From an uncultured Bacteroidales bacterium (GTDB lineage: Bacteria; Bacteroidota; Bacteroidia; Bacteroidales; Paludibacteraceae): a stretch of DNA of 36,205 nucleotides. The notes under the pieces were generated by a model. The model saw only the letters and a list, made by a program, of their open reading frames with translations. It was not told the DNA's origin and ran no database searches. Positions within the stretch are counted from its first letter, which is position 1. Every line of letters starts with the position of its first letter. Location of the stretch: NCBI GenBank assembly GCA_900321775.1, contig ONXE01000001.1, positions 1 to 36,205 of the forward strand, written 5' to 3'. The position numbers and the translations under genes are program-made. This document shows, in pieces, positions 1 to 30,305 of this stretch.

Positions 1-101
1 GATGAGCCATTAGTGTGTTCATTTCATGGGTGTATTCAAAAAAGTCTGTAACGGCTAATGGATACACCCTTTCAATATATTCTTTTAATTCAAAGATTAT
101 T

Positions 102-506
102 ATGAACGCAAAAAACAAGAGGGCCGTGATTTATGCCAGGGTGAGTTCTGAAAATGACAGGCAGGACACATCACGACAAATCACAGACCTTCAAAAATTC
201 AGCGAAGCCCAGGATATGGAAATTGTCAAAATCTATGAAGAGCATATTTCAGGGGCGAAGAAAAATGAGGAGCGACAAGTTCTGACCGAGTGCCTTGACT
301 ACTGCACCAAGAACCATGTCGATTACCTCCTACTATCTGAACTGAGCCGCTTAGGGAGATCGACGCTGCAAGTACTGAAATCCCTTGAGCAGCTACATGA
401 GGCTAAGGTTTCAGTCTACATTCAGAACCTTGGCTTATACTCGCTGCAACCTAATGGAGAAGTCAACCCAATTGCATCCATCCTTATTACCGTTTTGGCT
501 GAGATG
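102..506 (+). pseudogene. Serine recombinase (resolvase/invertase family), catalytic domain only; 3' part apparently removed by phage insertion
   Basis: MNAKNKRAVIYARVSS (catalytic Ser motif), LSRLGRS and ...LAEM align with Gin/Hin. After LAEM the conserved ERELIxERT helix and the C-terminal HTH are missing. The ORF instead reads through a terminator hairpin and antisense into the next gene up to 758. Confidence 0.6.
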
Positions 507-570
507 GGAAATATAGAGTCCGCTTCGCAAAACGAAATGTTACTTTTTCGGGTTCCTTCCCCACAACGAA

Positions 571-606
571 AAAACGCCTCAGATTTCTCTGGGGCGTTTT
601 CTTTTT
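571..606. terminator. Rho-independent-type hairpin (bidirectional geometry), plausibly ending the leftmost phage operon
   Basis: aaaacgccTcaga-tttc-tctgGggcgtttt is a 10-bp stem with one G-U pair. An A-run lies on one side and a T-run on the other. It lies 13 nt beyond the stop of the minus-strand gene 619-1257. Confidence 0.6.
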
Positions 607-618
607 CTCCATGTTGTT

Positions 619-1257
619 TCAAACGTTCAAATCAAACTTCACATTCTCGTCGCCATCAAGCAGCTGGCGTGTGCGTTCCTGGTTGTTCTCGTATATGTGT
701 ACGTTGCCAAGGTTCAGCGTTATGCTTTTCAGAGGCAAATCTATCTGCCGAGCCATGAGGTAGAGATGGTAAATATCAGCCGGCAAGCCAAGGTTCGCGT
801 CGCTGCTTCGCTGGTATGCTGACAGTACCAGTTCCCCGTCGTCTATCTGGAACTGCACGAGGCTCAGGCATGGGGCTTGGTTGCTCTCTGCACCAGTCTC
901 ACCGAGGAACAGCACATAGTTCTTGCTGTTGCGCTTCTCGCGGTTTATCTTCGCAATGAGTGGAGGCAGTTTCTCAAAGTAGGTCGGGTAACTGTTCACC
1001 AGGACAGAACCGCAATAGTCCCACCAGTTGATGCCCACGTCGCGGTATCGTTCCACGTTCCGCTCACCCTGCATAAAAAGTTGCAACTCATTCTTCAGTT
1101 TCTTCCTGGCTATGCCGTGGCTCTCGAATATATCGAGCAGGTCGGCAGGGGTCAATGACAACTGCTCATTGAGCAGGTAGCGGATATTTCCTTTCTTGTT
1201 CGTCTGGGTCTTTCCTTTCTCCAGAACCTTGCCCAGTATCTGGTAGTATTTGTTCAT
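619..1257 (-). CDS. Minimal thymidylate-synthase-fold enzyme, predicted pyrimidine C5 (hydroxy)methylase with cytosine-type specificity residue
   Basis: The N-terminus MNKYYQILGKVLEKGKTQTNKKG aligns with ThyA [23 protein letters not shown]. Catalytic Cys in APCLS (ThyA PCH). YQRSSDANLGLPADI aligns with ThyA YQRSCDVFLGLPFNI, so ThyA Asn177 is Asp here. Only 212 aa, with shortened middle and C-terminal regions. Confidence 0.65.
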   Translation of the reverse strand: MNKYYQILGKVLEKGKTQTNKKGNIRYLLNEQLSLTPADLLDIFESHGIARKKLKNELQLFMQGERNVERYRDVGINWWDYCGSVLVNSYPTYFEKLPPLIAKINREKRNSKNYVLFLGETGAESNQAPCLSLVQFQIDDGELVLSAYQRSSDANLGLPADIYHLYLMARQIDLPLKSITLNLGNVHIYENNQERTRQLLDGDENVKFDLNV

Positions 1258-2609: not shown

Positions 2610-3095
2610 TTATTCATCCCGATAGTCTTCCGGGTTGAACGCATCTTTCTTCTGCCATCCAGCATCCAGCGTGTCCTGGATAAAACGCATGGCCTTCGTG
2701 TAGAAGTCAGCCAGTTCCTCCAGTCTTTCAAACACCCGATACTTCGGCTGCTCGTCTGTACCGAACTTGAACTTCACAGGTAGCGTCGTACCATTCGACT
2801 GTACGGCGAGGTCGTAGGCTGCCTTGTAGTTGAACTGGTTCTCAGAGGACAGCCACACAGGGTCGCCCTCATACTCGAAGCCGGACAGGATGGTCTGGTC
2901 GGTCTGCTGATTGTACCAGCCAATGACAGCGGCCTTGATTTCCTCGTCAGTCGGCTTGTGGGCGAACTCCGCCTCCATGTAGTCGGCAGATCCGTCCTCA
3001 TGTTCCTGCACGTCCCAGCGGACGCGCCACTTGTTTCTTGCCGGGCTGACGCATTCAATCAGTTTTACACCGGCGGTTCCTTCTGTCCTTTGCAT
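2610..3095 (-). CDS. Hypothetical protein directly downstream of the RT (5-nt gap); C-terminal half resembles the DUF4376-type domain seen in phage tail-fibre-associated proteins
   Basis: 161-aa ORF with protein-like composition. TDQTILSGFEYEGDPVWLSSENQFNYKAAY...LEELADFYTKAMRFIQDTLDAGW recalls DUF4376. This is recollection only, not searched. Confidence 0.5.
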   Translation of the reverse strand: MQRTEGTAGVKLIECVSPARNKWRVRWDVQEHEDGSADYMEAEFAHKPTDEEIKAAVIGWYNQQTDQTILSGFEYEGDPVWLSSENQFNYKAAYDLAVQSNGTTLPVKFKFGTDEQPKYRVFERLEELADFYTKAMRFIQDTLDAGWQKKDAFNPEDYRDE

Positions 3096-3100
3096 TGTCT

Positions 3101-4405
3101 CTAAGTGAAAACGTACTTGGTTCTACCTTTGCCGAAGGTCTCCGTCTTGATGGTGGTCTCGAAGGGGAACCCGTCGGGCATTTCTCTAATCTGGGCGAGG
3201 ATATTCTTCATCTCCTCGCTGTTGGTGAAAAACTTCTTGGGCTCGCCGTTCTGCTCGATGGCCACGATGCAGCGGTCCTCGCCCTGCTCTGTCTTGATGC
3301 CTGTCTCGAAGTCCTTGACTACGATGGGCAGGTTCACCAATTCCCTGATGCTTACCACCGCACCAGAGAAGCGCTTCTTGCCGTCCTCCGGTTTGTAAGC
3401 GACTTTCAAATCCTTGAATGATTTCATCTGTTTGCCTGTTAATTTATTAAACAACATGTTACAATTGGCGTGCTTTGCCATGCCATAGAAGCTCGCTATC
3501 AATTCACGCCTTCTTTTCCTACTCCTGACCTCGTGCATCTTGCGGGCCATCTTCTGCTTGATGCGCTTGCGCAGTTCCACATGCTTGGAACTGTAAATCA
3601 CATAGCCCAGGAAGTCGATGCCCTCACTTACCGGGAACACGCGCTCGTTGGCTTTCACCTCCAAGTCTATATGCTCCACCAGTTCGTGTACCACGTCACG
3701 CACGAGCCACAATTCCGCTTTCGATTTTCCGAGTACCACGCCGTCATCACAATAGCGGTAGAAATGACGCACGCCGTACCTGTCCTTCAAATAGTGGTCT
3801 AAAAATACAGACAATAAGAGATTGCCCAGCCCCTGCGAACTACGCAGCCCGATGCTGATGCCCGACGGCATCATGCGGACAAAGCCGTCCAGCAGGGCAA
3901 TGAGCCTTTTGTCCTTGAAAATCCGCTTCACGCAGTACATCACAAAGTCCGGCTGCACGTTGTCGTAGAACTTCGAGATGTCGAACTTGTAGCAGTACCG
4001 CGTTCCGTCAGGATCTTCCTCCAGGTCGCGCCGGATATACGCCAGCAGGTCGTGCATCCCGCGTTCCTTGATACTGGCCGAGGTGGTGCGGATAAAGCGC
4101 TTGCGCATGTGCCTGTCCACGACATTCATCACGGCATGTACGCCGATGCGGTCATACATGGAGAGCACCTGTATCTTGCGCAGCTTGCCGCCTTCCACGA
4201 TCTCGCGCTCCCTGTAGTCCTTCACGGTGAACGTGCCGGACGCTATACGCTCCGTCAGGTCCCGTATCACCTCGTCCCTATGCGCAAGGAGCCAGCGCCC
4301 CTGGCGTGAGCGTTTCCGCTTCGTGCCTCGGAGCACCGTATCGAAGGAGTCCGACATATTGCCGTACTCAACGATTTCCTCAATGATGTAACCTTCTCTG
4401 CGCAT
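3101..4405 (-). CDS. DGR-type reverse transcriptase with ~100-aa C-terminal extension
   Basis: RT motifs: SIGLRSSQGLGNLL (the [LIV]GxxxSQ hallmark of DGR RTs) and the YCDD catalytic box (FYRYCDDGVVL). A TR lies 241 nt upstream. It is 434 aa versus roughly 330 aa for the Bordetella phage Brt. The extra tail is ...KSFKDLKVAYKPEDGKKRF...TTIKTETFGKGRTKYVFT. Confidence 0.9.
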   Translation of the reverse strand: MRREGYIIEEIVEYGNMSDSFDTVLRGTKRKRSRQGRWLLAHRDEVIRDLTERIASGTFTVKDYREREIVEGGKLRKIQVLSMYDRIGVHAVMNVVDRHMRKRFIRTTSASIKERGMHDLLAYIRRDLEEDPDGTRYCYKFDISKFYDNVQPDFVMYCVKRIFKDKRLIALLDGFVRMMPSGISIGLRSSQGLGNLLLSVFLDHYLKDRYGVRHFYRYCDDGVVLGKSKAELWLVRDVVHELVEHIDLEVKANERVFPVSEGIDFLGYVIYSSKHVELRKRIKQKMARKMHEVRSRKRRRELIASFYGMAKHANCNMLFNKLTGKQMKSFKDLKVAYKPEDGKKRFSGAVVSIRELVNLPIVVKDFETGIKTEQGEDRCIVAIEQNGEPKKFFTNSEEMKNILAQIREMPDGFPFETTIKTETFGKGRTKYVFT

Positions 4406-4646
4406 AGTTCAAAAATTGTTGTTTGCGAAGGCCGAAGCCTTCCTTCCGTGGGTCCAAGTTCTTCGAGCCGTTACCGACCTACCAAACTCTACCCGTCACT
4501 CCGTTTTTCACCTTTCCGGCACATGAGCGGTGTCATGTCCTCTTTATAGAGGTTAAGCCGCTGTTGGTGGGGCTCGGCTCCCTCGGCACCGCACTGGGGA
4601 CACGTCCCCGTCGCTGTACGCCGATTTCAGTTTCTTTGGTTGTTGT
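4406..4646 (-). ncRNA. Structured spacer between TR and RT start (presumed 3' part of the DGR template RNA)
   Basis: Minus-strand hairpins: gaaggc-UUCG-gccuuc (4427-4442, 21 nt before the RT ATG), cctct/agagg (about 4541-4554), acatga/tcatgt (about 4522-4539), gggga-cacg-tcccc (4596-4609). No credible ORF. The role is inferred from DGR biology. Confidence 0.5.
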
Positions 4647-4759
4647 CCAGACGCGACCCGACATTCGCATTCGAGTTCGACGCATCGTTATTCGCATTCG
4701 CGTACGACACACCGCCATTCGCATTCGCGTTGTTGTTGCCGCGATAGACCACACGGCCT
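4647..4759 (-). repeat. DGR template repeat (TR)
   Basis: 113-bp copy of 5013-5125 (offset 366). In the coding frame it reads GRVVYRGNNNANANGGVSYANANNDASNSNANVGSRL, rich in AAY codons. It has 26 adenines on the coding strand, 10 of which differ in VR. Confidence 0.95.
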
Positions 4760-4806
4760 ATGGGAGCTTCCACCCTGAAAAGTGCATATTGTCAGCTTTC
4801 CGACTG

Positions 4807-4814
4807 CAAAGGTA
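4807..4814 (-). promoter_or_regulatory. Candidate -7 promoter box TACCTTTG about 48 nt upstream of TR
   Basis: Plus caaaggta equals minus GTACCTTTGCAG, an exact TAnnTTTG. It sits between the target-gene stop (4945) and TR (4759), so it could drive a dedicated TR-spacer-RT transcript. Confidence 0.45.
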
Positions 4815-4944
4815 CTCATTTTCAGCGAGGCTACCGAAAATTCCACCAACTTCGACGGGCTTACGCCCGTATTTCTTGATGTCTTCGTACCTCAGACATC
4901 ACGCTTTACGCTTTGTCGCTTCGCTCCCGTTTTCGCTTTTCCGC

Positions 4945-7900
4945 TTACGCTACCTCGACTGCCGCCTTGTACGCGGCCACGCTCTCCGCCACCACGATTT
5001 TGCCGCGGAAGGCCAGACGCGACCCGACATACGCATGCGAGCTCGACGCATCGCTAAACGCATACGCGCACGACACACCGCCATTCGCATACGCGTGGTT
5101 GTTGCCGCGATAGACCACACGGCCTGTGGAACCACTGTAGTAATAGTAGTCACAATAGTATGTCGTGCTGCTGCCCGAAGCGGCTGCTGGCACCACGTCC
5201 ATATATTTTCCGTGTGTCACGCCGTTGATCCAGCCGGTGGCCTCCACGCCCTTTACCCGTCGGTATGTTCCGTCAGGCATCAGGTATCGCCACTTGCCGC
5301 CGTTACCGCTGTCGTTCGGAACGTCCACGCAGTCCATCATATCATATTTATGGCCGTAGATGTCCTCGTAGCCGAGGCAGTTCGTGTTGTTCAACTGGTA
5401 GAACACCGTCTCGCCGTCCGTGTTCGTCTCCTTGTAGAAGGCCTTACCGTTGCCTTCCACGCCGCCCACGGTCGTGCCGTTCGTGTTCACCGTGTCCTGC
5501 ATGCCTATCTTCGCAGTGCCGCCGGTGGTTCTGGTGTTTGAGTTTTGTCCCGCGCCGCACTGCATCTGGCTGTCTCGCCGCCCGTACTTGGCAAAGAACA
5601 GGTTGGCGATGTCGTTGTGCATCAGGCCGTCTATCTGCTGCATACCTCTTTGGGCAGAGTAGAAGTGGAAGTCAGTCCACGTCATGCTCGCTGCTGTCGA
5701 GCCGCCGGTGATACAGGCTCTCAGTTTGTCCCCGACCACGCTGCTGCCCACTACGGCGCACAGGTAGGGCTCCACCTCCACCCAGTCGGGTTCCATGTCC
5801 TCTATCTTCGTGCTGTTGCTCAGCACCACCATGTCAAACTCCGCAGTCTTCAGAATCGAGAAGTTCAGGGCAACGGCATTTGCCGGAACGTCGGCTATCA
5901 GGTACATGCCGGCAACGAACTTCGAGCCGAGCGTGCTCACCACTACCGTGCCCACTACGAGACCAGCTGAGTCCGTGAACACGGCACACACAAGGTTCGT
6001 GCCTGGCACACTTGGGAAGCGCACTTTCTTGTAGCCGCTCACGCCCACCCTGCAGACGGCGTAGCTGTTGTCTGCCGTGTAGCTCTGCGCCAGCGTCTCC
6101 TTGCCGCTCATGATCTTGTAGTTATTCCGGTAGTCACCGGCATCCTTGATCTCGTCCAGGGTCACAATGTCGCAGTCCGGCTTCTTCGGCATACGCTCGT
6201 TGCTGCTCCAGCAAGCATAGTGCTTGCCGTTCAGGTAGTCGTTCACACCCTTGAACCAGCGGTGGGGCTCATACATCATCCAGTCGCCCTCCGTGCTGTC
6301 CAGCTTAGCCGCCGAGCAGTTCTTCAGTTCCTGGGCATCGGCGTAGTAGTTCGAGTTCTCTGCATGGAGCGGATAGATGGTCGCCTCGCCATCCCCATTG
6401 TTCTGCGTCGTCGCCACGCCTGCATGGGTGATGTTCCGCGAGGTCGGCTTCTTCGTCACCTTCGCCAGGCAGCGGTAGCGCCTCTTCAGCAGTGCCAGCA
6501 CATGGCCGCTCGCCACATAGTCCGTGCCGAACTTGTAGCCCGTCCCGTTGTCCAGGTTGCTCACGTTGGCGTCGTCGCTCACCGTGTCGTCAAACTCCAG
6601 CATCGAGTAGTCGGGCTGCAGGATCGTCAGCTCCGGGTATCTCGCTTGCATGGCGGCATAGTCCTCGTCGTCCATGTAGCTCGTCAGCTGCACCGTGCCC
6701 ACAAGGGCGCAGTAGTCCACGGCGTTGCCGCTCGCGTCCACGCCCTTCAGGTTCTTGTAGCGGTTCAGCAGGGTTCCGTCGTCTTCCACGCTGATGCCCT
6801 CGATGCGCACACGTTCCACGTTCACGCACTTGCTGATCATCGACTGCCAGCTGATGTTCGGGCAACCGGCATAGCGCAGCGTCTTCACCGTCCGCCAGTT
6901 CTGCAGCGTCAGTCCGCTCTCCTTCAGGTCGGGCAGATACTCCAGTCTCAGCGTCTGGATGTTGCTGCCCAGTTTGGCGGTCGTCAGAGGACAGCCCTGA
7001 GCAAACAGCACCGCTTGGACGTTCACGCCGCGAGCGTCCAGCGTCTTCAGTCGCGTCTGGTTCCTGAAGTCCAGTTCCGTGCTGCTCAGCGTGCCGGTCT
7101 TCGCACTCGCCTGACCGTACAGGTTCACGTCGGTCAACTGGCGGCACTGGTCCAGTACCAGACACCAGCCGGTGCTGCCGCTCCCGTTCGTCTGCAGGTC
7201 AAGCACACGCAGCACCTTGCACTTGTTCAGGTTCAGGTCACCCGTCAGGTTGTTCGCCGCTCCCTCCATGTTCAGTTCGGCAATGCGGCTCGCGCCGTAG
7301 ATTCTTATCGGGTCGTTCACCGTGAAGGCGTTGCTGAACACCAGCGTCACCGTGCCGCCTTTCTTGGCCTCCTCGCTCGGCTGCAGGTGGGGGGCGTTGT
7401 TCGTGCCGTAGCCGAAGTAGTAGAGTTCGCTCGCCTTCACCACGATGGTGTTGGCCGCCTCCGTCGCCTGGCGGCTCATATACATGTCTATGTTGTCAGA
7501 GAGATAGTTGCCCGTCTCATACTTCGCGTCGAGCAGGGCGAAGCGGTTCTGGATGAACCAGTGCCTGAATGCCTGCTTGTCACCCTTCAGGGCGTAGATA
7601 TACGGGTACTTCACGATGCCGGTCTTCGTCTGCACACCCTCGGTCTGGGGCTTGATGTACTTGATTTCGCCGCTCTTGTTGTAGGCTCTGCCGCACCAGT
7701 TCCCCTGCTGCTCCTCGTCGAACATCTGGTTCACCAGTTCCTCGGTCAGTTTCTCTCTCATCGTCGTGGCCATCGCCTTGATCTCATCCTTGAAGTTGGC
7801 GAGAACCAGGCACCACAGCCACGAGTCGTGGCCCTCAAAGGCGTATTTGTTCTTGTCGCTGTCCCACGTCTCTCGCGTCACGTTGTACAGGTATGCCAGC

Positions 7901-10900
7901 ATCGAGTCGTTGCGGTCGCCAATCTGGGTGTCGCCGTCGTAATACAGCAGATACCACACCAGCGCATCCCACGTCGCGGCTATCATGTTCTTCGCCCGCT
8001 GGTCCACGTTGGCGAAGTAATCCGTGAACAGCCACCAGCACAGCAGGAAGTTCAGGTTCAGGTACTGGCTCACCTCCGTTTTGAACTCGCTCGAGACAAA
8101 CGTGCTCACGTCGCTCGGTGTCGCGCCTGCCGGCACACAGTCCCTAATCCAGCCCCACAGACGCTTGAAGGCGTTTTTCTTCGCCGTCGGCGCATTGGCC
8201 CACTTCGTATCCTCGCCACCCGTCTTCGCCGGGTAGTTGAACTCCAGGGCGTTGTCAAACTCCGCTGCCGCCTGCGCGTCCAGGTCGCTCTGTCCCTGGA
8301 ACAGGCACAGCGGCTGCGTGTTGTTCAGGAACTCGAAGGCGATGGGTTCTGTCGGCGTGAAACCATCCACGCCTTCCATGCCGATGATAGCCTGCCAGTC
8401 GCTCTTGTCGTGGTTCAGGTTGTACTGGCCGTAGTAGGTCGGCGTGTCCTCCAGGCTCTCTGCCGAGAACACGTCGATAGGAAAACCGTCCACGGCTGTC
8501 CTCACGTTGCTGTCCACCTGCTGAGGCGGGGTCAGGAACCCCAGCGACTTCATCAGGTTGTTCCACAGCTTCGCGCCGCCGGTGTTCTGAGCCATTGACG
8601 AGTCTGAGTAGTCAGCCTTGGCACAAAGGATCTTCACTTTCTTCTGTCCCACGCGCAGGGCGATCTTCAGTTCCGTCTGCTTCACGCCGTTGATATACAT
8701 CTCCGGATTCTCTCCCTTCGCGCAGTAGATGCGGTAGTTCTTCGTCGGGTATTTCGTCGAGCTCGTGCCCTGGATTCTGATATATACGTTGTGCAGGTAG
8801 ATGTACCGTCCGTCCGGAAGCCACAGGTGCACGTCGGCAAGGAAGTCGGTCTTCTTGTTGTTCTCGGCGTTCACAGGGTCCAGTCCGCCCTGGCGCACCA
8901 CGAGCATGATGCCCTTGCCCTTGTTACGCAGTTTCTGGAAGTCGATGCTCCGTCCGTCCTCGCCCAGCACGTCGTTCTCTTCAAACAGGGCGGCCATCTC
9001 GTCCAGCGTCTGGCGGTTCACGATGTGGTTGTCCATTTCCTCGTCGTCGCTCAGCGCACGGTCATACACATGCACCGTCCGCACCTCCACGTCTGCACCC
9101 GTGCTGTCCAGCGTGATTCCCTTCGGCGTGTCCTGCATGAAGTTGTCGCTGTCACCGTAGATGTCGGCAGCGCAGCGCGTACCGTTCACGTAGAGTTCCA
9201 TCAGGCGCCCTTCTGAGCGCTTGCCAATCACGAAAGCAATCTTCACCCACATATCCTGACCGTACTGGCGGCCAACGCCCACGGGCTGGGTGGTCTTGTT
9301 GCCGTCCTCGTCCTCCACCTCCTTCGTCGAGCCGGTGTACATCATGGCCTTGTCTGCCGTGATCTGGAAGCCCTTCACTCCGTCCAGGCAACTCACCACG
9401 TCGCTCTCCTTGTCCGTGATGTTGCTCACCTTCAGTTCCACCTCAAACGTGCGGCCCGTCGTGGCGGCATCCTGCGTGAAGGGCTTGAAGTCGATGTAGG
9501 CTTTCGCGCCGTTCATCAGCTTCAGCGACTCGCCGGTCCACCCGCTCGTCTGCCAGTCCACGTTCTCGAAGGTGGTCTTCACCTCGCCGTGCTCCCAGTG
9601 CACGGGGTCGCTCTCGCCGTTGCTCCTGCCGGCGGCGCTCAGCTTCAGCCGCAGGTCAAGGGTCGCTTCCTCCACGTCGATGCTGCTCTTGCTCACGTCG
9701 ATATAGAACGGGTATTCCGTCGCGCCGCTCACCAGTTTCATGGTCTGTGCGCCCTGCTCCGTGAAGCGGTTGGCGTAGGTCTGGGTGCTACGGGGAACCG
9801 ACACGTCCTGCACCTTCTCCCCGTTCTGCCACACACTCATCGGGGCAGGGGTAACGCCTGCGTCATACACGGCATACTCGAAGGTCAGCTGCTCATACTG
9901 TCCGGCTGCCAGACGTGGGGTGCGGTGGTCTGTCGTGAAGATGCGTCCGTCCTGGAACGTGTGCTTCGTGCCGATCAGCGGGGCACTGCTGCCGGCCTTG
10001 AAGATGTCCATGTAGATGCTCTCGCTCCTCAGCGTCAGGTCGGCGCTGGCATCCATCTCGGCCACCATCTGCACCGTGTGACGGCCTATGGTCAGTCCGC
10101 TCATCGGTATCGTGAAACTGCCGTTAGTCGCGCCGCTCCTGGTCACGGTCGCAGTCTCGTACTGGCTCCCGTCCACATACAGGGTGACGACCTTCGTGCC
10201 GGTGCCCTGCACGGTGTAGGGGATGACCGCGCTTTCCGTCGAGCCGTAGCCGCCGGTGCTCAGACCGCTGCTCAGGCTGTAACTGCTCTGCAGGCTCAGG
10301 TTCACCACCTTCACGTTCGCATACGCCTGCTTCGTCTGTGTCTTGCCCGTAGTCGGGTCGGTGGTCGTCGCCTTCACGTAGATGTCGGTCGTGCCCACCT
10401 GCAGGTATTTGCTCACATCCAGCGTGTAGGTGCCTTTGCTCACGTCTTCCGTCGTGACGCTGTAGGCAAGGATGGAGCCTCGAAGCACCCTTATCTCCAC
10501 CGTTGCCTTCTGCCCTGTTGTCTGGCCTGCATCATCGCCGCTGGTATATTGATGGTCATAGCTCCACGTCAGCACGCAGTTCCCGCCTTCTTTGATGATG
10601 CCCTGGTTCACGCTTGCGCCCAGCACAATCTTCGTCGCCTGGGTGTCGCCGCCGCCACCGCCACCGCCGGCTGCCAGCGTGAACTGGGTAATGGCCGCAC
10701 CGCTCTTGTTCTTCAGCGTCACCGTCTGGGTGCCGTCGTCGCCTTCCTCCACGTCGCTGTCAAACAGGGTCGCACTCTCTATCTCGTTGAACTTGCCAGC
10801 AACGGCGCGGTTCTCCACAGGGTTCGTGCTCTGGGCATCCAGGCTCGCATCCACCGTCAACTCGTCCACCGTCAGGTCTATGTTGCCTTGGGCGTCGGGG

Positions 10901-11826
10901 GTCTTCTTCTGACCGTTCAGCGTCACGCTCTTCACCGTGCCGCCACCGCCGAAGTCGTCCCAGCTGCTCTCGCTCTCCCAACTGGTCAGGCTGGTACCCA
11001 CAAACTGCTTCGTCTGCCACTTGCCCTGGCTCACCTCGAAGGTCACACATGCGCCTTTCACGCGCTTCTTCTCCTCCACGGCTCTGATGGCGGTGGCAAG
11101 GGTGTAAAAGCCATTGTCCAGCGGATAGGTCTCCGTCACGTTGATGGTATTGCCGCCGCCGGTGCCGCTGGCCTCCACAAGGGCATTATCTTCGTCGCTC
11201 CAGGCATAGAGTGTGTCGCCCTGCAGGTAGAGTTTGTCCTTCCTGATGCCTATCGGGTCAGCGGTCAGGTCGTTGTACATTTCACAACCTTTCCAAGACA
11301 TGCTGTATCTTGTGCCATTCTTGCCGACAAACAGTTTCTTCGCCGTCACATAGTAGATGGCATCCACACTGGTGAAGCTCTGCTCCGCCAGCGTCACGTC
11401 ATCCAATATGCCGGCAAAACGGGCTGTGGCACCGTTCCGAGCCAACACTGCCACGTCCTCATATTGTTCCACCACGGCTTCGGCTGCTTGTGTGGCTTGC
11501 TCCGTCGCTTCTTTCGCATCCGTGGCCGCTTGTGCCGCCGTCTGTGCCGCCTGAGCCTTTGCGTCGGCATTGCCCGCGGCGGTGTTGGCGGTTCCGGCTG
11601 CTCCTTCTGCCGCTGCTTTCGCTGCCAGTGCCTGCGCTGCCGCATCGGTAGCCGGCTTGCCCAGCAGACTTACAGGCGCACTCACCAGTTCCGTGCCGCG
11701 AAGCGCGGGCAGGGTCTTCACCCCGTCAAGGCTCGACACTTCCTCCAGTTCCGTCACGCCCTGGCTCTCGCTCTTGATGGCGTTCAGCACTTCCTGCTTG
11801 ATTTCTTGTTTCTCTTGCTCTGTCAT
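4945..11826 (-). CDS. Giant multidomain tail fibre / receptor-binding protein, DGR target (C-type-lectin-fold-like variable C-terminus)
   Basis: 2293 aa. Ala/Gln-rich N-terminal coiled region. LamG/ConA-like segment (...LMELYVNGTRCA...VRTVHVYDRALSDDEEM). CotH-like segment (IRIQGTSSTKYPTKNYRIY...AKADYSDSSMAQN...YYGQYNLNHDKSD). Leucine-rich repeats (LNKCKVLRVLDLQTN...LKTLDARGVN...LRLEYLPDL). VR lies in the last ~60 aa. The gene follows the Tal-like tail gene. Confidence 0.85.
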   Translation of the reverse strand: MTEQEKQEIKQEVLNAIKSESQGVTELEEVSSLDGVKTLPALRGTELVSAPVSLLGKPATDAAAQALAAKAAAEGAAGTANTAAGNADAKAQAAQTAAQAATDAKEATEQATQAAEAVVEQYEDVAVLARNGATARFAGILDDVTLAEQSFTSVDAIYYVTAKKLFVGKNGTRYSMSWKGCEMYNDLTADPIGIRKDKLYLQGDTLYAWSDEDNALVEASGTGGGNTINVTETYPLDNGFYTLATAIRAVEEKKRVKGACVTFEVSQGKWQTKQFVGTSLTSWESESSWDDFGGGGTVKSVTLNGQKKTPDAQGNIDLTVDELTVDASLDAQSTNPVENRAVAGKFNEIESATLFDSDVEEGDDGTQTVTLKNKSGAAITQFTLAAGGGGGGGDTQATKIVLGASVNQGIIKEGGNCVLTWSYDHQYTSGDDAGQTTGQKATVEIRVLRGSILAYSVTTEDVSKGTYTLDVSKYLQVGTTDIYVKATTTDPTTGKTQTKQAYANVKVVNLSLQSSYSLSSGLSTGGYGSTESAVIPYTVQGTGTKVVTLYVDGSQYETATVTRSGATNGSFTIPMSGLTIGRHTVQMVAEMDASADLTLRSESIYMDIFKAGSSAPLIGTKHTFQDGRIFTTDHRTPRLAAGQYEQLTFEYAVYDAGVTPAPMSVWQNGEKVQDVSVPRSTQTYANRFTEQGAQTMKLVSGATEYPFYIDVSKSSIDVEEATLDLRLKLSAAGRSNGESDPVHWEHGEVKTTFENVDWQTSGWTGESLKLMNGAKAYIDFKPFTQDAATTGRTFEVELKVSNITDKESDVVSCLDGVKGFQITADKAMMYTGSTKEVEDEDGNKTTQPVGVGRQYGQDMWVKIAFVIGKRSEGRLMELYVNGTRCAADIYGDSDNFMQDTPKGITLDSTGADVEVRTVHVYDRALSDDEEMDNHIVNRQTLDEMAALFEENDVLGEDGRSIDFQKLRNKGKGIMLVVRQGGLDPVNAENNKKTDFLADVHLWLPDGRYIYLHNVYIRIQGTSSTKYPTKNYRIYCAKGENPEMYINGVKQTELKIALRVGQKKVKILCAKADYSDSSMAQNTGGAKLWNNLMKSLGFLTPPQQVDSNVRTAVDGFPIDVFSAESLEDTPTYYGQYNLNHDKSDWQAIIGMEGVDGFTPTEPIAFEFLNNTQPLCLFQGQSDLDAQAAAEFDNALEFNYPAKTGGEDTKWANAPTAKKNAFKRLWGWIRDCVPAGATPSDVSTFVSSEFKTEVSQYLNLNFLLCWWLFTDYFANVDQRAKNMIAATWDALVWYLLYYDGDTQIGDRNDSMLAYLYNVTRETWDSDKNKYAFEGHDSWLWCLVLANFKDEIKAMATTMREKLTEELVNQMFDEEQQGNWCGRAYNKSGEIKYIKPQTEGVQTKTGIVKYPYIYALKGDKQAFRHWFIQNRFALLDAKYETGNYLSDNIDMYMSRQATEAANTIVVKASELYYFGYGTNNAPHLQPSEEAKKGGTVTLVFSNAFTVNDPIRIYGASRIAELNMEGAANNLTGDLNLNKCKVLRVLDLQTNGSGSTGWCLVLDQCRQLTDVNLYGQASAKTGTLSSTELDFRNQTRLKTLDARGVNVQAVLFAQGCPLTTAKLGSNIQTLRLEYLPDLKESGLTLQNWRTVKTLRYAGCPNISWQSMISKCVNVERVRIEGISVEDDGTLLNRYKNLKGVDASGNAVDYCALVGTVQLTSYMDDEDYAAMQARYPELTILQPDYSMLEFDDTVSDDANVSNLDNGTGYKFGTDYVASGHVLALLKRRYRCLAKVTKKPTSRNITHAGVATTQNNGDGEATIYPLHAENSNYYADAQELKNCSAAKLDSTEGDWMMYEPHRWFKGVNDYLNGKHYACWSSNERMPKKPDCDIVTLDEIKDAGDYRNNYKIMSGKETLAQSYTADNSYAVCRVGVSGYKKVRFPSVPGTNLVCAVFTDSAGLVVGTVVVSTLGSKFVAGMYLIADVPANAVALNFSILKTAEFDMVVLSNSTKIEDMEPDWVEVEPYLCAVVGSSVVGDKLRACITGGSTAASMTWTDFHFYSAQRGMQQIDGLMHNDIANLFFAKYGRRDSQMQCGAGQNSNTRTTGGTAKIGMQDTVNTNGTTVGGVEGNGKAFYKETNTDGETVFYQLNNTNCLGYEDIYGHKYDMMDCVDVPNDSGNGGKWRYLMPDGTYRRVKGVEATGWINGVTHGKYMDVVPAAASGSSTTYYCDYYYYSGSTGRVVYRGNNHAYANGGVSCAYAFSDASSSHAYVGSRLAFRGKIVVAESVAAYKAAVEVA
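5013..5125 (-). repeat. DGR variable repeat (VR) at the 3' end of the tail-fibre gene
   Basis: 103/113 identical to TR. Mismatches are at VR 5031, 5037, 5042, 5054, 5057, 5058, 5064, 5069, 5091 and 5097, all opposite plus-strand T (coding-strand A) in TR. It encodes GRVVYRGNNHAYANGGVSCAYAFSDASSSHAYVGSRL. Confidence 0.95.
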
Positions 11827-24990: not shown

Positions 24991-25941
24991 TCAGATTTCA
25001 CATTCAATGCCGTACTCGGCCTTGTACAGTTTCTTGTACTGCGCCGGGTTCTGCTCACGCATCTTCGACAACTCGTCGCTCGGCACGTCGCTCAGTTTCT
25101 TGTACTCGGCATGGCCACCGGCTGGAGCACCGCCGCCATTCACGATGTTGCTCAGCTTTACCTGGGGCGACATGGCGTCTAAGGTCTGCTTCAACTCGTC
25201 GGCACCAATTTTCTTGCCGAGGTCCAGGAACTGCTGCTTCTTGTCCTCACCGATCTTCTTCTCGGCAATGGCAGCGTTCACCAAGGTTTCAATACGGGCG
25301 GCACGCAGCGTGTCGCGTTCCTGGCGCAGGGTCTCAGCCTCCGCACCGTCAGCCTGCAGCTTTGCCAGCTTCGCGTTGATGGTCGCTTCGTCGGCATCCT
25401 TAGGCAAGCCCAATTGAAGGGCTAACTTCTCTTGATCCATTTGCTTTGGTTTTTGATTTTTGTTGTTATTACTATGCAGCAGCGGCAACTCTACACCGCC
25501 GTCTTTGCCTAACTCTATGCGCTTGCCGTCTTTCTGCAGCACGATGGCATCGTCATTCGCGCCAATGTCAACAAGCGACACCTCAAGCAGTTTGCTCTTG
25601 CTGATGGTCGGGCTGGTCTGACCCTGCACCAGGTGCTTCGGGTCTTCGCTCAGTTCCAGAATGTCGATACCGGCACTCACCATCTTCAGACTGCCGAACT
25701 CCCACTGCTTCTTGCAGCGCTGGCTCAGTTCCGTGGCTTCGTCAAACATCAGTTCGCCGGTCACCTCGTCACCTTCCACCTTCAAGTCCTTAACATAGCC
25801 GATGACCTGACCGCGCTCGTGCATATACAATAGTACGGGGTTACGGTTGTACTGCTCCACGTTCATGCCCGCCGTCAGAACCCTCGTGCCGTAGCTGTTC
25901 AGGCTCTCGTTGCTGATTCTTACTCTTTTTGTCTTGCTCAT
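24991..25941 (-). CDS. Prohead protease fused to scaffold-like coiled-coil C-terminal half (Mu gpI/Z-like arrangement)
   Basis: The N-terminus (NSYGTRVLTAGMNVEQYNRNPVLLYMHERGQVIGYV...LLEVSLVDIGANDDA) resembles HK97-family prohead proteases. The C-terminal half is an Ala/Lys/Glu-rich helical region. It lies upstream of the capsid gene. Confidence 0.65.
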   Translation of the reverse strand: MSKTKRVRISNESLNSYGTRVLTAGMNVEQYNRNPVLLYMHERGQVIGYVKDLKVEGDEVTGELMFDEATELSQRCKKQWEFGSLKMVSAGIDILELSEDPKHLVQGQTSPTISKSKLLEVSLVDIGANDDAIVLQKDGKRIELGKDGGVELPLLHSNNNKNQKPKQMDQEKLALQLGLPKDADEATINAKLAKLQADGAEAETLRQERDTLRAARIETLVNAAIAEKKIGEDKKQQFLDLGKKIGADELKQTLDAMSPQVKLSNIVNGGGAPAGGHAEYKKLSDVPSDELSKMREQNPAQYKKLYKAEYGIECEI

Positions 25942-25990
25942 TTTTTCGTTCTTTATGCTGTGCGGAAACGCACAGCTGCGATTGTTTTTT

Positions 25991-26001
25991 GTGCAAAGTT
26001 G
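25991..26001 (-). promoter_or_regulatory. Candidate -7-like box CAACTTTGCAC for the leftward head/tail operon
   Basis: Plus gtgcaaagttg is the exact reverse complement of the box at 26096-26106. About 50 nt upstream of the protease ATG (25941). Confidence 0.4.
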
Positions 26002-26095
26002 CGTCCTTTAATCGACCCTACAAAAAAAGTGTGAAACGGTTGCACACTTCTATGAAACCATTGCACACATTTTTTCTCTACTGCCTGAAAATAAC

Positions 26096-26106
26096 CAACT
26101 TTGCAC
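26096..26106 (+). promoter_or_regulatory. Candidate -7-like box CAACTTTGCAC for the rightward terminase/portal operon
   Basis: Near-consensus TAnnTTTG (CAACTTTG), about 35 nt upstream of the TerS ATG at 26139. Confidence 0.4.
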
Positions 26107-26138
26107 CAGTTTTCAACTCCTTTAATAAAAACGTTTTT

Positions 26139-26612
26139 ATGACAAAAGCAGAAATTGAAAGAAAGAAACAGCTCGGACGGTCACTGTACATGTCCGGCAT
26201 GGAACTGACGGAGATTGCCGACCAGTTGGGCGTGTCAAGGCAGTCTGTCTCTAAGTGGTGCAGCACCGACGGATGGAAGGAGGCGCGTGCAGCCAAGAAT
26301 ATCTCACGCCCTGAACTGGTCAACAAGTTGCTCCTCGCTATCGACAACCTCATTGCGCAGGTCAATGATTCAGGCGACCCAGAGGCTATCGGGGCACTCG
26401 CCGACAAACTGTCGAAACTCTCGTCAACGATTGAGAAACTCGACAAGAAGGCAAACGTCATCGATGCCATCGAGGTCTTCATGGCATTCAATCGATGGAT
26501 TCAGGACCAGGCTTGCTACGATCCGGACATCACGCCGGAACTTATCAAGGCCATCAACAAGTACCAGAACAAGTTCCTCATGGAAAAGATGTCTCACCCT
26601 GCAGAACTCTAA
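26139..26612 (+). CDS. terS: Small terminase subunit, Mu gp27-like (DUF1804-type HTH)
   Basis: Start at MTKAEIERKKQ. LYMSGMELTEIADQLGVSRQSVSKWCSTDGWKEARAA is the gp27-like HTH signature. Directly upstream of TerL. Confidence 0.7.
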   Translation: MTKAEIERKKQLGRSLYMSGMELTEIADQLGVSRQSVSKWCSTDGWKEARAAKNISRPELVNKLLLAIDNLIAQVNDSGDPEAIGALADKLSKLSSTIEKLDKKANVIDAIEVFMAFNRWIQDQACYDPDITPELIKAINKYQNKFLMEKMSHPAEL

Positions 26613-26615
26613 ACT

Positions 26616-28178
26616 ATGTCCACTATCGCGGAATTTAAGAAAGTACAGGAGGAGTGGAGGGAGCATTGCCGGCAGATCCAAAACCTGACCGACACGAAAA
26701 GTCTCGTACGTGAGAATGCCACCCAGAAGGAGCAGCGCATACGCCGCCTCCAGAAAGACTATGCCGCTTTCTGTGAGTATTACTTTCCGCATTTCCTTAC
26801 ACTCCGTGACAAGGTGACTGGCGAAGCCATACGCACCATCCACAATGCCCCATTTCACAATGCGGCAGCCAAACTCGTAAAAAACACGCCGAACCTGAAG
26901 GCGGTCTTCAAGTGGCCACGCGGTCACGCCAAGTCCACACACTTCGACATCTTCATGCCGCTCTGGTTGATGTTCCAACCGAAGCGGCTCATCAATTTCA
27001 TGGTGATTGTCGGAAAGTCCGAGGACTCCGCCGACCGACTGCTGGGTGACATTCAGGCGGAGCTCCAGTATAACAAACGCATCATTGCTGATTTCGGCAA
27101 ACAAATGACGCTCGGCAACTGGACGGAGGGTGAGTTCACCACCAAGGACGGGGTGTATTTCCTGGCTTGTGGCCGTGGGCAGTCGCCACGTGGTCTCCGT
27201 AAGCGTGAGTCGCGTCCTGACTACATTGTCATCGACGACCTCGACGACGACGAACTATGCCGTAACGAACGGCGTGTCCGTGAACTCACCGACTGGGTAA
27301 AGGAGGCACTCTTCGGAGCGCTCGACGTGGGTCGCGGTCGCTTCCTCATGGTGGGCAACCTCATATCCAAGACTTCCGTCCTGGCGAATATATGCGCCAC
27401 AAAGGGCGTCCACGTCTCAACGGTATATGCCGTTGACAATGAGGGCAACCCCGTATGGAAAGAGAAATGGACCAAGGAGGAGGCTCGTGAGTACATGGAG
27501 TTCGTGGGCTATCGTGCCTGGAACAAGGAGATGATGCACAACCCCATCGTGGAGGGCACCGTCTTCCGGCAGGAATGGATCAAGTGGGCGAAGCGTCCAG
27601 CGTGGAAGGACTTTACCGAATTTGTCCTCTATATCGACCCGTCCTGGAAAAGCAAGAAGACCAACGACACCAAGGCGGCCAAACTATGGGCAAAGCGCAA
27701 GACGGAGCTCTGGCACCTCCGCGCTTTCGTGCGCAAGGCATCGGTAGCGGAACTGGTGCGCTGGTGTTACGACCTCTACGAGTGGAGCCAGGAAGTAGGC
27801 ATTGCCATACGCTTTGCGATGGAGGCTTCATTTATGCAGGATATGATACTCGACGACTTCACGGAGGAGGGCAATCTGCGTGGCTACCAACTCCCCATCA
27901 CGGGCGACACGCGCAAAAAACCGGACAAGTTCCAGCGTATCGAGGCCATCAGTCCGCTCTGGGAGCGTGGCTTCGTGTTCTACGACCAAGCACAGAAGGA
28001 AGACCCCGACATGCAAGCCGGACTGGAGCAGCTGTTGGCATTCGAGAAGGGTATGTCCGGGAACGACGACGCGCCTGATGCCGACGAGGGTGCCATCTGG
28101 ATCCTGCAGAGAAATACAAGACAACAGATTTATTCACCGAGGTTCGGCAAACGTCCGACCTCCAAAAACCAATGGTAA
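26616..28178 (+). CDS. terL: Large terminase subunit
   Basis: 520 aa. Walker-A-like WPRGHAKST, Walker B DYIVIDDLDDDE, C-terminal nuclease-type acidic motifs (YIDPS..., DDAPDADEGA). Followed by the portal module. Confidence 0.85.
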   Translation: MSTIAEFKKVQEEWREHCRQIQNLTDTKSLVRENATQKEQRIRRLQKDYAAFCEYYFPHFLTLRDKVTGEAIRTIHNAPFHNAAAKLVKNTPNLKAVFKWPRGHAKSTHFDIFMPLWLMFQPKRLINFMVIVGKSEDSADRLLGDIQAELQYNKRIIADFGKQMTLGNWTEGEFTTKDGVYFLACGRGQSPRGLRKRESRPDYIVIDDLDDDELCRNERRVRELTDWVKEALFGALDVGRGRFLMVGNLISKTSVLANICATKGVHVSTVYAVDNEGNPVWKEKWTKEEAREYMEFVGYRAWNKEMMHNPIVEGTVFRQEWIKWAKRPAWKDFTEFVLYIDPSWKSKKTNDTKAAKLWAKRKTELWHLRAFVRKASVAELVRWCYDLYEWSQEVGIAIRFAMEASFMQDMILDDFTEEGNLRGYQLPITGDTRKKPDKFQRIEAISPLWERGFVFYDQAQKEDPDMQAGLEQLLAFEKGMSGNDDAPDADEGAIWILQRNTRQQIYSPRFGKRPTSKNQW

Positions 28179-28179
28179 T

Positions 28180-28410
28180 ATGTTCCAACTCATTAAAGAC
28201 CTCATTTTCGGCTTCCGCTTCAAGCGTGCCGTCAAGAAAGCAGACCGCTTTCACCATATCACGCACCGTAAATATATGGTGCTGGTCATTAACAAACACC
28301 TCGAAGTCCTCTCCAAGCAGGAACTCAAAAAGTTCATAGCCGGTGGGGTGTTCCGGAAAGGTACCACCATTGCCGACCTTGAAGCAAAGGCTCTTTACAT
28401 AACACTCTAA
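28180..28410 (+). CDS. Hypothetical small protein
   Basis: Internal ATG at 28180, 1 nt after the TerL stop. 76 aa (MFQLIKDLIFGFRFKRAVKK...). The longer ORF from 27880 overlaps TerL and is rejected. Confidence 0.45.
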   Translation: MFQLIKDLIFGFRFKRAVKKADRFHHITHRKYMVLVINKHLEVLSKQELKKFIAGGVFRKGTTIADLEAKALYITL

Positions 28411-28420
28411 ACTTCTGGCT

Positions 28421-28840
28421 ATGTTTATCACGGATGAAGACTACAAGGTGGTCATCGGCGACCAGGCTCTGAAGGTTGTCTCACAGGTCAGCCAGGAGAA
28501 CCGGGCCAATGCCGAGACGGAAGCCGTCGAGGAAATCAGCGGCTACCTCAGACCCAAATACGACACCAGCGCCATCTTCAGTGCCGTTGGCACGGAGCGG
28601 AACAGGCTCGTGGTCATGTACACCTGCGACATCGCACTCTATCACATGGCTGCATCGGCACCGCAGAAGATGGGCATGGAGATACGAAAGGAACGTTACG
28701 AACGCGCCATCAAGTGGCTGGAGGGAGTTCAGGCAGGGAAAATCGTGCCGGATCTGCCACTTGCCACCGACGAGGACGGAAACCCCGTCGGCTTCCCGAT
28801 GGTGTACGGCTGTCAGAAGAAACTACGTCATAACTGGTAA
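28421..28840 (+). CDS. Mu gp36-like head-tail connector protein (DUF1320-type)
   Basis: MFITDEDYKVVIGDQAL...AETEAVEEISGYLRPKYD...YERAIKWLEGVQAGKI matches the pattern remembered for DUF1320/gp36. 139 aa. Confidence 0.6.
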   Translation: MFITDEDYKVVIGDQALKVVSQVSQENRANAETEAVEEISGYLRPKYDTSAIFSAVGTERNRLVVMYTCDIALYHMAASAPQKMGMEIRKERYERAIKWLEGVQAGKIVPDLPLATDEDGNPVGFPMVYGCQKKLRHNW

Positions 28841-28845
28841 CAATC

Positions 28846-30180
28846 ATGGGAAAGAGAAACAAAAATACAGACAATAAACTGCTGGTGCGCACCCCGTTCG
28901 GAACATTGCGCCTGGCTAAGAAGGATGCGCAGCGCTTCAAGAAGACGGTCATGGAACTACAGCGCACCACCGACTCGCTCACCCGAAAGGATATCGGGGA
29001 CTGGAGAAATGCCTGGCAGTTGGCAATAAACGTGGATAGTCCGAACCGTCAGAGGCTATACGACATATACCGCGATGTGGAGGTGGATTTGCACCTCTCC
29101 GGCTGCATACAGCAGCGCGAGGGCTTTGTCATGGCCCGTTCCTTCAAACTGGTCAACGAGAAGGGTGACGAGGACGAGGAGGCAGCAAACTACTTCAACA
29201 CCTCCTGGTTCAAACTGCTAATGAAGTTCGCCCTCGACGCTAACTACTGGGGGCACTCGCTCATAGAACTGGGCAACATCACCACCGACATAAACGGACG
29301 GCAGACCTATGACGGGGTGCGCCTCATTCCGCGTAAGCATGTCATTCCGGAATATCACCGTGTCGTTCCTGACCTCGGACAGGACTGGCACACCGGCATT
29401 GACTACCACGACACACCGTTTGCCGACTGGCTCATTGAGGTGGGGCAGCCAGACAGTCTGGGGCTTTACCTCAAAGCCGCAACACAGACCATCCCGAAGA
29501 AAAATGCCCTGGCGTTCTGGGACACCTTTGCCGAGATCTTCGGTATGCCGATGCGCATTGCACGGACCACCACACGCGATGACAAGGAACTCGCCAAGAT
29601 GGAAAAGATGATGGCCGACATGGGTACCGAGGGATGGGGCATATTCCAGGAGGGTACGAACATCGAGGTCGTGGAGTCTTCACGGGGCGATGCTTTCAAT
29701 GTCTATGACAAGCGCATCGATCGTGCCAACTCGGAACTCTCCAAACTGATCATCGGGCAGACTATGACCATCGAGGACGGATCCAGCCTCTCACAGTCTG
29801 AAACGCACCTTGAAGTCTTCCAGAACCTCATCGAGGCGGACTGCGACACCATCCGTGACATGGTAAACAATCAGCTGCTGCCGCACATGATCCGTCACGG
29901 CTTCCCGCTCAAAGGAATCCACTTCGACTGGGACTACTCAGTGGACTATACGCCGGAGCAGCAGGTGGCATACGAGACGATGGTGCTCAATGAGTATGAG
30001 GTTGACCCTGCCTACTTCGAGGAGAAATACAACATGCCTGTAGGGGAACGTAGGCAGATGTTGCCGCCTGTCGCGCCACCAGAGCCGCCACAGGACGATG
30101 AAGACCCCAAAGGCAATAAAACGCCCAAGCCGGACAAAAAGACGCGACAGGAACAAAATGCGCGCCCTTTTTTCGACTGA
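28846..30180 (+). CDS. Portal protein, Mu gp29-like (DUF935)
   Basis: 444 aa, between terminase and MuF. DIGDWRNAWQLAINVDSPNRQRLYDIYRDVEVDLHLSG... is typical of DUF935 portals. Acidic/Pro-rich C-terminus. Confidence 0.8.
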   Translation: MGKRNKNTDNKLLVRTPFGTLRLAKKDAQRFKKTVMELQRTTDSLTRKDIGDWRNAWQLAINVDSPNRQRLYDIYRDVEVDLHLSGCIQQREGFVMARSFKLVNEKGDEDEEAANYFNTSWFKLLMKFALDANYWGHSLIELGNITTDINGRQTYDGVRLIPRKHVIPEYHRVVPDLGQDWHTGIDYHDTPFADWLIEVGQPDSLGLYLKAATQTIPKKNALAFWDTFAEIFGMPMRIARTTTRDDKELAKMEKMMADMGTEGWGIFQEGTNIEVVESSRGDAFNVYDKRIDRANSELSKLIIGQTMTIEDGSSLSQSETHLEVFQNLIEADCDTIRDMVNNQLLPHMIRHGFPLKGIHFDWDYSVDYTPEQQVAYETMVLNEYEVDPAYFEEKYNMPVGERRQMLPPVAPPEPPQDDEDPKGNKTPKPDKKTRQEQNARPFFD

Positions 30181-30305
30181 GCCCCAGTGATTACCTGGGG
30201 CTGCACGAACGCTATGCCCGAATCCTTGCGGACGGCGGTCTTCCCGTCGCCACTTTCGCCCGTGAGGACGAGATACGTCAGGAACTCTCGCGCCTGTTCG
30301 AGGGA

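Follow-up and report, generated by a model that had tools for sequence, protein, structure and literature searches.

A stretch of 36,205 nt from an uncultured Bacteroidales bacterium (contig ONXE01000001.1; hereafter the window, to whose full length all positions refer unless another locus is named) contains a diversity-generating retroelement (DGR) of the hankyphage type on a Mu-like prophage, with all DGR genes on the minus strand. The element has no Avd, the accessory protein on which the Bordetella system depends. In our reading, to which we assign a probability of roughly 0.55, the C-terminal extension of its reverse transcriptase (RT) is a partner of the enzyme that helps to hold or position the spacer RNA, and the product of the 161-codon open reading frame (ORF) downstream of RT, ORF161, is an RT-independent helper on the side of the target fiber. 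Approximately one-quarter of the known DGRs are without Avd, among them the highly abundant hankyphage and crAss-like elements of the gut. How such DGRs make mutagenized cDNA has been a question since 2017, and all mechanistic work concerns the Avd-dependent Bordetella system. No new system is described here. Instead, three parts are singled out: the structured RT-3 RNA upstream of RT, a separable 108-aa RT domain, and the gene CH1, to which ORF161 corresponds. Natural variants already perform the "deletions" of these parts. A compact DGR RT that is cofactor-free or works as a single chain would serve engineered targeted mutagenesis.

Both the enzyme and the repeats identify the element as a DGR. 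The RT gene (3101-4405, stop codon at 3101-3103) encodes a protein of 434 aa, whose best solved relative is bRT of Bordetella, by sequence as well as by fold. The template repeat (TR; 4647-4763, 117 nt, 27 adenines) has a direct 117-nt counterpart, the variable repeat (VR; 5013-5129), at the 3' end of the target gene. The two are 91% identical, 10 of the 11 mismatches fall on TR adenines, and the 3' end of TR, GTCGGGTCGCGTCTGG, is identical to that of VR. The target (4945-11826) is a 2293-aa tail-fiber-like protein with a C-terminal variable domain, and its gene stands where the hankyphages p00 and jmh43_hp have their tail-fiber gene. With the BT-TP2 phage target it shares 44% identity over about 1950 aa, and it also aligns with the fibers of L082 and L065, two relatives without a DGR; a comparison of the protein with Pfam gave no match. 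From the end of VR to the target stop codon there are 68 nt, from this stop codon to TR 181 nt, and from TR to RT 241 nt. The ATG of ORF161 (2610-3095) lies 5 nt past the RT stop codon. An earlier note on this DNA had described a target, TR, a 434-aa RT and, after 5 nt, a 161-aa ORF, and all its gene coordinates hold. It had also given the interval between target and TR as 185 bp and free of ORFs. Since TR reaches 4763 and not 4759, this value is corrected to 181 nt, and short mechanical ORFs do occur in the intervals, namely one of 53 aa (TTG start, 4688-4849) and two in the frame of TR with 48 aa and 73 aa; that none of them is Avd-like stands.

The element is a relative within an already published DGR class, and the architecture itself is not new. 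In the survey by Wu et al. 2018 (PMC5758913), Lineage 3 consists of DGRs without avd, and Lineage 3a occurs only in Bacteroides and relatives, with "f1" targets of about 2000 aa and a VR of the CLec3 class. Architecture E1 of the same survey bears a candidate accessory gene, CH1, whose product has 160-169 aa, an isoelectric point (pI) of 4.7 and no motifs. CH1 was never seen together with avd and was proposed as an accessory gene limited to avd-less DGRs. Wu et al. further noted motif-less C-terminal extensions of up to 150 aa in about 20% of DGR RTs. The window has the E1 layout, with target, TR, RT and CH1 in this order and no avd, HRDC or MSL gene. ORF161 is CH1, as judged from two matches. 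Their properties agree, and in Phocaeicola plebeius DSM 17135, which carries a reference CH1 DGR of Wu et al., the position at which RT begins (62543) is the one that appears in the identifier ABQC02000022.1_61713_62543 of that survey; this RT is followed by a 161-aa homologue of ORF161 (pI 4.8, 67% identity). Therefore, the architecture that the earlier note had taken to be atypical or new is a catalogued one, Lineage 3a / Architecture E1, and this claim is rejected. Across RT and ORF161, the window shares about 76% nucleotide identity with Bacteroides phage p00, and the gene order is common to both. Mu-type genes in the window include Gam, a GemA-like gene, a Mor-like gene, gp36 and a virion morphogenesis gene. 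The closest genome matches are metagenome-assembled genomes (MAGs) of Prevotellaceae, the nearest being a "Candidatus Physcousia equi" / Prevotellaceae MAG. In our reading, the prophage belongs to a Prevotellaceae host. Hankyphage DGRs have been measured as active in experiments (PMC12135933).

In the spacer between TR and RT, the earlier note had seen no ORF. The length of 241 nt was right, and the spacer proved to be not empty but to hold a full-length structured RNA. The covariance model of Rfam family RF03068 (RT-3 RNA) matched 4449-4626 over model positions 1-148 of 148; it scored 128.4 bits, where the gathering score is 40.5 (E = 7e-32). Between this RNA and the RT start codon downstream there are 43 nt. 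RT-3 was found at the equivalent place in p00, BT-TP2 and BS-TP4, and was absent from the relatives without a DGR, including L082 and L065. It was previously reported that the RNAs RT-1 to RT-19 adjoin RT genes and that RT-10 is the TR-RT spacer of phage BPP-1 (Weinberg et al. 2017, PMC5737381); the BPP-1 spacer was later shown to be the "Sp" RNA, which primes cDNA synthesis and organizes the ribonucleoprotein (RNP). The assignment of the TR-RT spacer to RT-3 is an addition of this analysis.

The RT was compared with bRT (PDB 8ub7, 328 aa). Residues 3-320 align with bRT residues 4-317 (phmmer E = 1.1e-19), and a Foldseek search with the AlphaFold model of the RT returned 8ub7 as the top match (E = 2.4e-17). 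The RT core, residues 1-326 (3428-4405), comprises the N-terminal extension, fingers, palm and thumb and matches Pfam RVT_1 (E = 1.3e-13). Because the alignment with bRT stops at residue 320, residues 327-434 (3104-3427) truly lie beyond the thumb, and the roughly 100 extra residues of the earlier note can be set at about 108. This C-terminal domain has a pI of 8.0 and matches phrog_19665, a 105-position family of unknown function, over positions 2-104 (E = 3.2e-21). In the AlphaFold2 (AF2) model, the last 85 residues or so have a predicted local distance difference test (pLDDT) score of about 82-88 and are joined to the thumb by a low-confidence linker. The modeled order of secondary-structure elements, beta1-beta2-beta3-alpha-beta4-beta5, suggests an OB-like barrel.

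Within the hankyphage clade, the extension is the best-conserved segment of the RT, with a median identity to the window of 92% versus 76% for the core (about 134 loci). Relative to p00, it is 89-90% identical at the protein level, and its ratio of nonsynonymous to synonymous substitution rates (dN/dS) is 0.03, compared to about 0.2 for the core. A profile of the extension was searched against 1.8 billion representative proteins (clusters at 50% identity). The 391 clusters obtained form two populations: proteins of 410-583 aa with the domain at the C-terminus, and proteins of approximately 103-109 aa that consist of the domain alone. These stand-alone proteins are mostly basic (median pI 8.8), and some of the short ones are truncations or mis-called genes. 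In two cases, L173/L174 and L177/L178, an RT of 327 and 328 aa, respectively, is encoded together with a separate extension homologue of 105 and 103 aa, the two genes sharing 17 nt; the contigs concerned are 32-49 kb long. That L173 is a true DGR is seen from its two VRs, its adenine-specific TR and its Rfam RNA, RT-17. Since evolution both fused the extension to the RT and kept it as an immediate neighbor gene, we regard it as a functional partner module. From these comparisons, it appears to be a discrete, mostly basic, beta-rich domain and a dedicated partner of this RT clade, present in only 31 of the 106 phage records with an RT-core homologue. Its occurrence in fused and split forms under strong constraint is an addition of this analysis.

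Several matches of the extension were discarded. The 108-aa proteins returned by the first protein search are not split genes but assembly truncations, as each lies on a contig whose first base is about 26 nt upstream of Met327. Hundreds of public contigs begin at this place (positions 1-27 of L005-L009). The probable cause is that, in assembly graphs, strains merge over the highly conserved extension but separate over the RT core, and such contigs therefore leave spurious 108-aa "proteins" in the databases. Pfam flags for TGS and biotin carboxylase on two extension matches stem from chimeric N-termini and not from the domain. A separate observation concerns LoVEphage BI-TP1 (L010, PQ571265), where the RT homologue (5925-7336) is spread over three frames (5925-6476, 6514-6744 and 6809-7336). 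Each of the six LoVEphage records has this three-frame RT, yet about 19% of positions differ between VR and TR. The RT could represent a pseudogene or a case of recoding, or the assemblies could share the same problem.

ORF161 encodes a protein of 161 aa with a pI of 4.64. Residues 52-158 (2622-2942) match Pfam DUF4376 (PF14301) with 27.2 bits against a cut-off of 25, and the homologue in BT-TP2 reaches 36.6 bits. The AF2 model (pLDDT 95.4) shows a four-stranded N-terminal beta domain, approximately residues 1-48 (2952-3095), followed by a helix-hairpin-helix-hairpin-helix domain. When this model was compared with BFVD using Foldseek, its fold resembled that of many DUF4376 proteins, which came from phages of Bacillus and Synechococcus, crAss-like phages and others, for example Goe8 (E = 8e-4, root-mean-square deviation 2.9). 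Kelch and prefoldin matches in the PDB were dismissed as noise. In Alteromonas phage V22 (gp27) and in Campylobacter CJIE1 prophages, DUF4376 proteins encoded after fiber genes were shown by experiment to be tail-fiber chaperones needed for fiber function (PMC7289586, PMC7882524, PMC10579305).

The gap between RT and ORF161 was determined in 151 related loci. It is -4 nt (ATGA overlap) in 87 of them, -1 in 19, +1 in 17 and +5 in 8; ORF161 is probably co-transcribed with RT and translationally coupled to it. The gene also occurs where there is no RT. L082 and L065 have neither TR nor RT, and their junction sequences differ. Both contain an intact fiber gene (2299 and 2441 aa, respectively) with a VR-like tip and, 41 and 79 nt further on, an intact ORF161 homologue. 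In L080 (2330-2821) and L089 (8001-8498, Prevotella falsenii DSM 22864), the homologue directly follows a MuF-like head gene and has no fiber gene or RT anywhere near. All invariant residues are retained in the RT-less homologues, and dN/dS between L082 and L089 is 0.08. As ORF161 is intact and under purifying selection in relatives without an RT, its function needs no RT. The Tfa-like placement directly after the fiber gene is thus seen in L082 and L065; in the window, TR, the RT-3 RNA and RT separate target and ORF161 by 1.85 kb, and in L080 and L089 a head gene precedes. Conversely, LoVEphage, L173 and L177 carry the extension and have no ORF161-like gene. That CH1 contains a DUF4376 domain and that it occurs without RT are additions of this analysis. 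In L089, about 3.7 kb without relation to the window come after the ORF161 homologue.

We propose the following mechanism. TR and the adjoining RT-3 RNA would be transcribed as one RNA that acts as template and organizer. The RT core would copy TR into adenine-mutagenized cDNA, and this cDNA would replace VR, with no Avd involved at any point. As an outcome, the C-terminal lectin-like tip of the giant tail-fiber protein would be diversified. The extension would hold or position the structured spacer RNA together with the template-primer duplex, which is the job of Avd in the Bordetella enzyme; most likely, it binds or positions RNA and so fills an Avd-like role by an unrelated fold. Such a functional replacement would be one by analogy and not by homology, because Avd binds the N-terminal extension of the RT and the spacer stem-loop, and bRT has no domain beyond the thumb. 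ORF161 would work on the target side, as a helper of fiber assembly or folding like other DUF4376 proteins, with a putative chaperone activity. ORF161 most likely acts on the fiber while being co-expressed with the RT.

The earlier note had suggested that either the extension or ORF161 may replace Avd. The extension has the arrangement of a module dedicated to the RT, fused or as a split gene; crAss-like Avd-less RTs do without it. For ORF161 the suggestion fares worse, as the protein belongs to the widespread DUF4376 phage family and is kept beside the fiber gene in relatives without TR and RT. Neither candidate is Avd-like in structure, the extension being beta-rich and ORF161 acidic with a mixed alpha/beta fold. 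Of the two, the extension is in our opinion the better, if unproven, candidate for an Avd-like role. A wider formulation is more tentative, and in our view less likely than not: the PHROG 19665 domain (about 105 aa) might be an unrecognized DGR accessory factor that has taken over the template-RNA-organizing role of Avd in one branch of Lineage 3, fused to RT in hankyphages and separate in other Mu-like phages, with CH1 as a fiber-side helper mislabeled "Avd".

The Pfam profile of Avd (PF05635) matched none of the 25 window ORFs, and the cassette has no avd gene, which in canonical BPP-1-like (Architecture B) elements encodes a basic four-helix bundle of about 125 aa. The window is without about 7 kb of the early region of the prophage, and Avd sequences are so poorly conserved that profiles can miss them (PMC5758913); an Avd might thus be encoded outside the window or by the host. 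We used the complete relative BX-TP1 as a proxy for what the window leaves out of the prophage. PF05635 gave no match in its small early-region ORFs, and its structure-based annotation names no Avd either. Moreover, where a DGR lacked avd, Wu et al. (PMC5758913) saw none at a distance in the genome either. A conventional Avd elsewhere is consequently very improbable, and the statement of the earlier note that avd is missing is borne out within the window and, as far as the early-region small ORFs of BX-TP1 represent it, beyond. Avd was likewise not detected by Pfam in the tested ORFs around the DGRs of the window, LoVEphage and BS-TP4, and the records and annotations of the BT-TP2, L173 and L177 loci name none. 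Every extension-bearing locus examined, hankyphage included, is thus without Avd. The small basic protein "hp41" (64 aa, pI 9.7), annotated in p00 at the place of the short interval ORFs, was weighed as a possible mini-Avd and rejected, as its ORF is broken by a stop codon in the window. The "Avd" note that recently deposited GenBank records attach to the DUF4376/CH1 gene of hankyphages (L002 2303-2788, PV107405, and sister records) is unsupported by sequence, charge or fold.

The label nevertheless reflects an idea that has to be weighed, namely that ORF161/CH1 is the true accessory factor and stands in for Avd functionally by binding either the RT or the RNA of the DGR, while the extension does something else. 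Wu et al. (PMC5758913) proposed CH1 as the accessory gene of avd-less DGRs, and it stands directly after RT in 134 of the 138 close relatives with enough flanking sequence, an ATGA overlap being the usual junction. In unrelated phages, its N-terminal domain is again found immediately behind Lineage-3 RTs: in L181 it is joined to another C-terminal domain (hhalign 96.5%), and in crAss cr50_1 a 114-aa ORF resembling it overlaps the end of RT and precedes a tail protein (hhalign 90.9%). This recurrence implies some link to the retroelement or its targets. However, CH1 is acidic (pI 4.6), whereas Avd has a pI of about 9.5 (PMC5758913); the DUF4376 fold is common to phages of other host groups (Bacillus, Synechococcus, crAss-like); the gene is intact and under purifying selection in four RT-less loci, in two of them directly after the fiber gene; and it is missing from the extension-bearing DGRs of LoVEphage, L173 and L177. 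An equal occurrence of ORF161 in DGR-less phages, which the earlier note had named as speaking against its proposal, is found in part, with four RT-less loci keeping the gene and nearly all close relatives having it after RT. We consider it distinctly unlikely that CH1 substitutes for Avd. An explanation that we also hold to be unlikely, if a little less so, dispenses with protein cofactors altogether: core and spacer RNA would suffice for Lineage-3 RTs, and the extension and ORF161 would serve cDNA hand-off, VR integration, packaging or fiber assembly. Indeed, crAss-like Avd-less DGRs have a 346-aa RT with no extension (PMC7290462), Architecture A of Wu et al. (TR and RT only) accounts for 29% of DGRs (PMC5758913), and neither the extension nor the N-terminal domain of ORF161 is universal among the loci examined. 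Against this stand the very strong constraint on the extension (dN/dS 0.03) and its invariable tie to the RT, be it by fusion or as an immediately overlapping gene. Furthermore, every Avd-less locus in the small sample examined had the extension, a protein with the ORF161 N-terminal domain, or both.

Our own reading, with the extension as RNA-aiding partner of the RT and ORF161 as fiber-side helper, also has to accommodate observations that weigh against it. Besides the position of ORF161 after RT and the recurrence of its N-terminal domain, no significant match of ORF161 to the PDB was obtained by sequence, profile or fold, TfaMu of phage Mu included, and searches of Pfam and of the PDB sequences with the extension profile gave no significant match. 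Between clades, the extension is more divergent than the core, with 40% versus 52-67% identity to BT-TP2. BPP-1 lacks the extension, and so do the crAss-like Avd-less Lineage-3 RTs; it is therefore not a general solution to the absence of Avd. Finally, the split loci (L173, 4034-5318; L177, 3031-4312) come from two clusters with an identity below 50%, and in both the overlap measures exactly 17 nt and lies in the +1 frame, with A/T-rich runs at the junction. A +1 frameshift may fuse the RT and extension ORFs there, as opposed to separate translation.

Other features of the window and its relatives were recorded along the way. Just downstream of the target stop codon, a small GC hairpin with a GTAA loop (4855-4870, minus strand) is seen in the sequence. 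It is also present in the DGR-less locus L065 (about 7955-7975) with one compensatory base-pair change, and may serve the fiber gene as a terminator or in RNA processing. A scan for promoters and terminators gave nothing above chance. In BS-TP4 (L011, PQ571277), a RelE/XRE toxin-antitoxin pair (4939-5599) is inserted between the DGR target and TR, and VR and TR are 1012 nt apart. At the left end of the window, a serine recombinase frame (15-758, plus strand; Resolvase N-terminal domain, E = 2e-26) ends in the antisense of thyA (619-1257, minus strand). From this, the right end of the prophage seems to lie near 540-618, and the recombinase gene may have been truncated by the Mu-like insertion or be part of a neighboring element. 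The head module (25929-31496, plus strand) contains the small and large terminase, gp36-like, portal and MuF-like genes and is on the strand opposite to all other phage genes. The same inversion occurs in hankyphage BX-TP1, which makes it a family trait.

Among known systems, the hankyphages p00 (BK010646; Benler et al. 2018) and jmh43_hp and their relatives (PLoS Biol 2025) are the nearest. They have the Mu-like backbone in common with the window and the same order of giant fiber target, TR, RT-3 RNA, 434-aa RT, 161-aa DUF4376 ORF and Mor-like gene, whereas the host lineage differs. In comparison with p00, the order of thyA and an N6-adenine methyltransferase gene is swapped (619-2113 in the window versus 214-1802 in L001), both orders being found among relatives, and "hp41" is an ORF in p00 only. 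The targets of about 2000 aa, the lack of avd, HRDC and MSL and the acidic 160-169-aa gene after RT, which characterize Lineage 3a / E1 of Wu et al., leave no architectural difference from the window.

Like the window, BPP-1 (bRT-Avd-RNA RNP, PDB 8ub7) combines a homologous RT core with adenine mutagenesis of a fiber tip and a structured TR-RT spacer RNA. It differs in that it needs Avd, a pentameric, basic four-helix bundle which contacts the N-terminal extension of the RT and the spacer stem-loop, in that bRT has no post-thumb domain in place of the 108-aa one of the window, and in that its spacer RNA is RT-10 instead of RT-3. With the DUF4376 chaperones (V22 gp27 and the CJIE1 gene located downstream of the H-fiber), ORF161 shares the domain by Pfam and predicted fold, and its homologues in DGR-less relatives also share the position directly after the fiber gene; the N-terminal domain is another one, and in the window TR and RT part ORF161 from the fiber. 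The crAss-like DGRs of Lineage 3 (LMMB, cr50_1) have the same Avd-less order of target, TR and RT. Their RT of 346 aa is without the extension and they have no DUF4376 domain, but the small ORF that overlaps the end of RT in cr50_1 resembles the N-terminal domain of ORF161.

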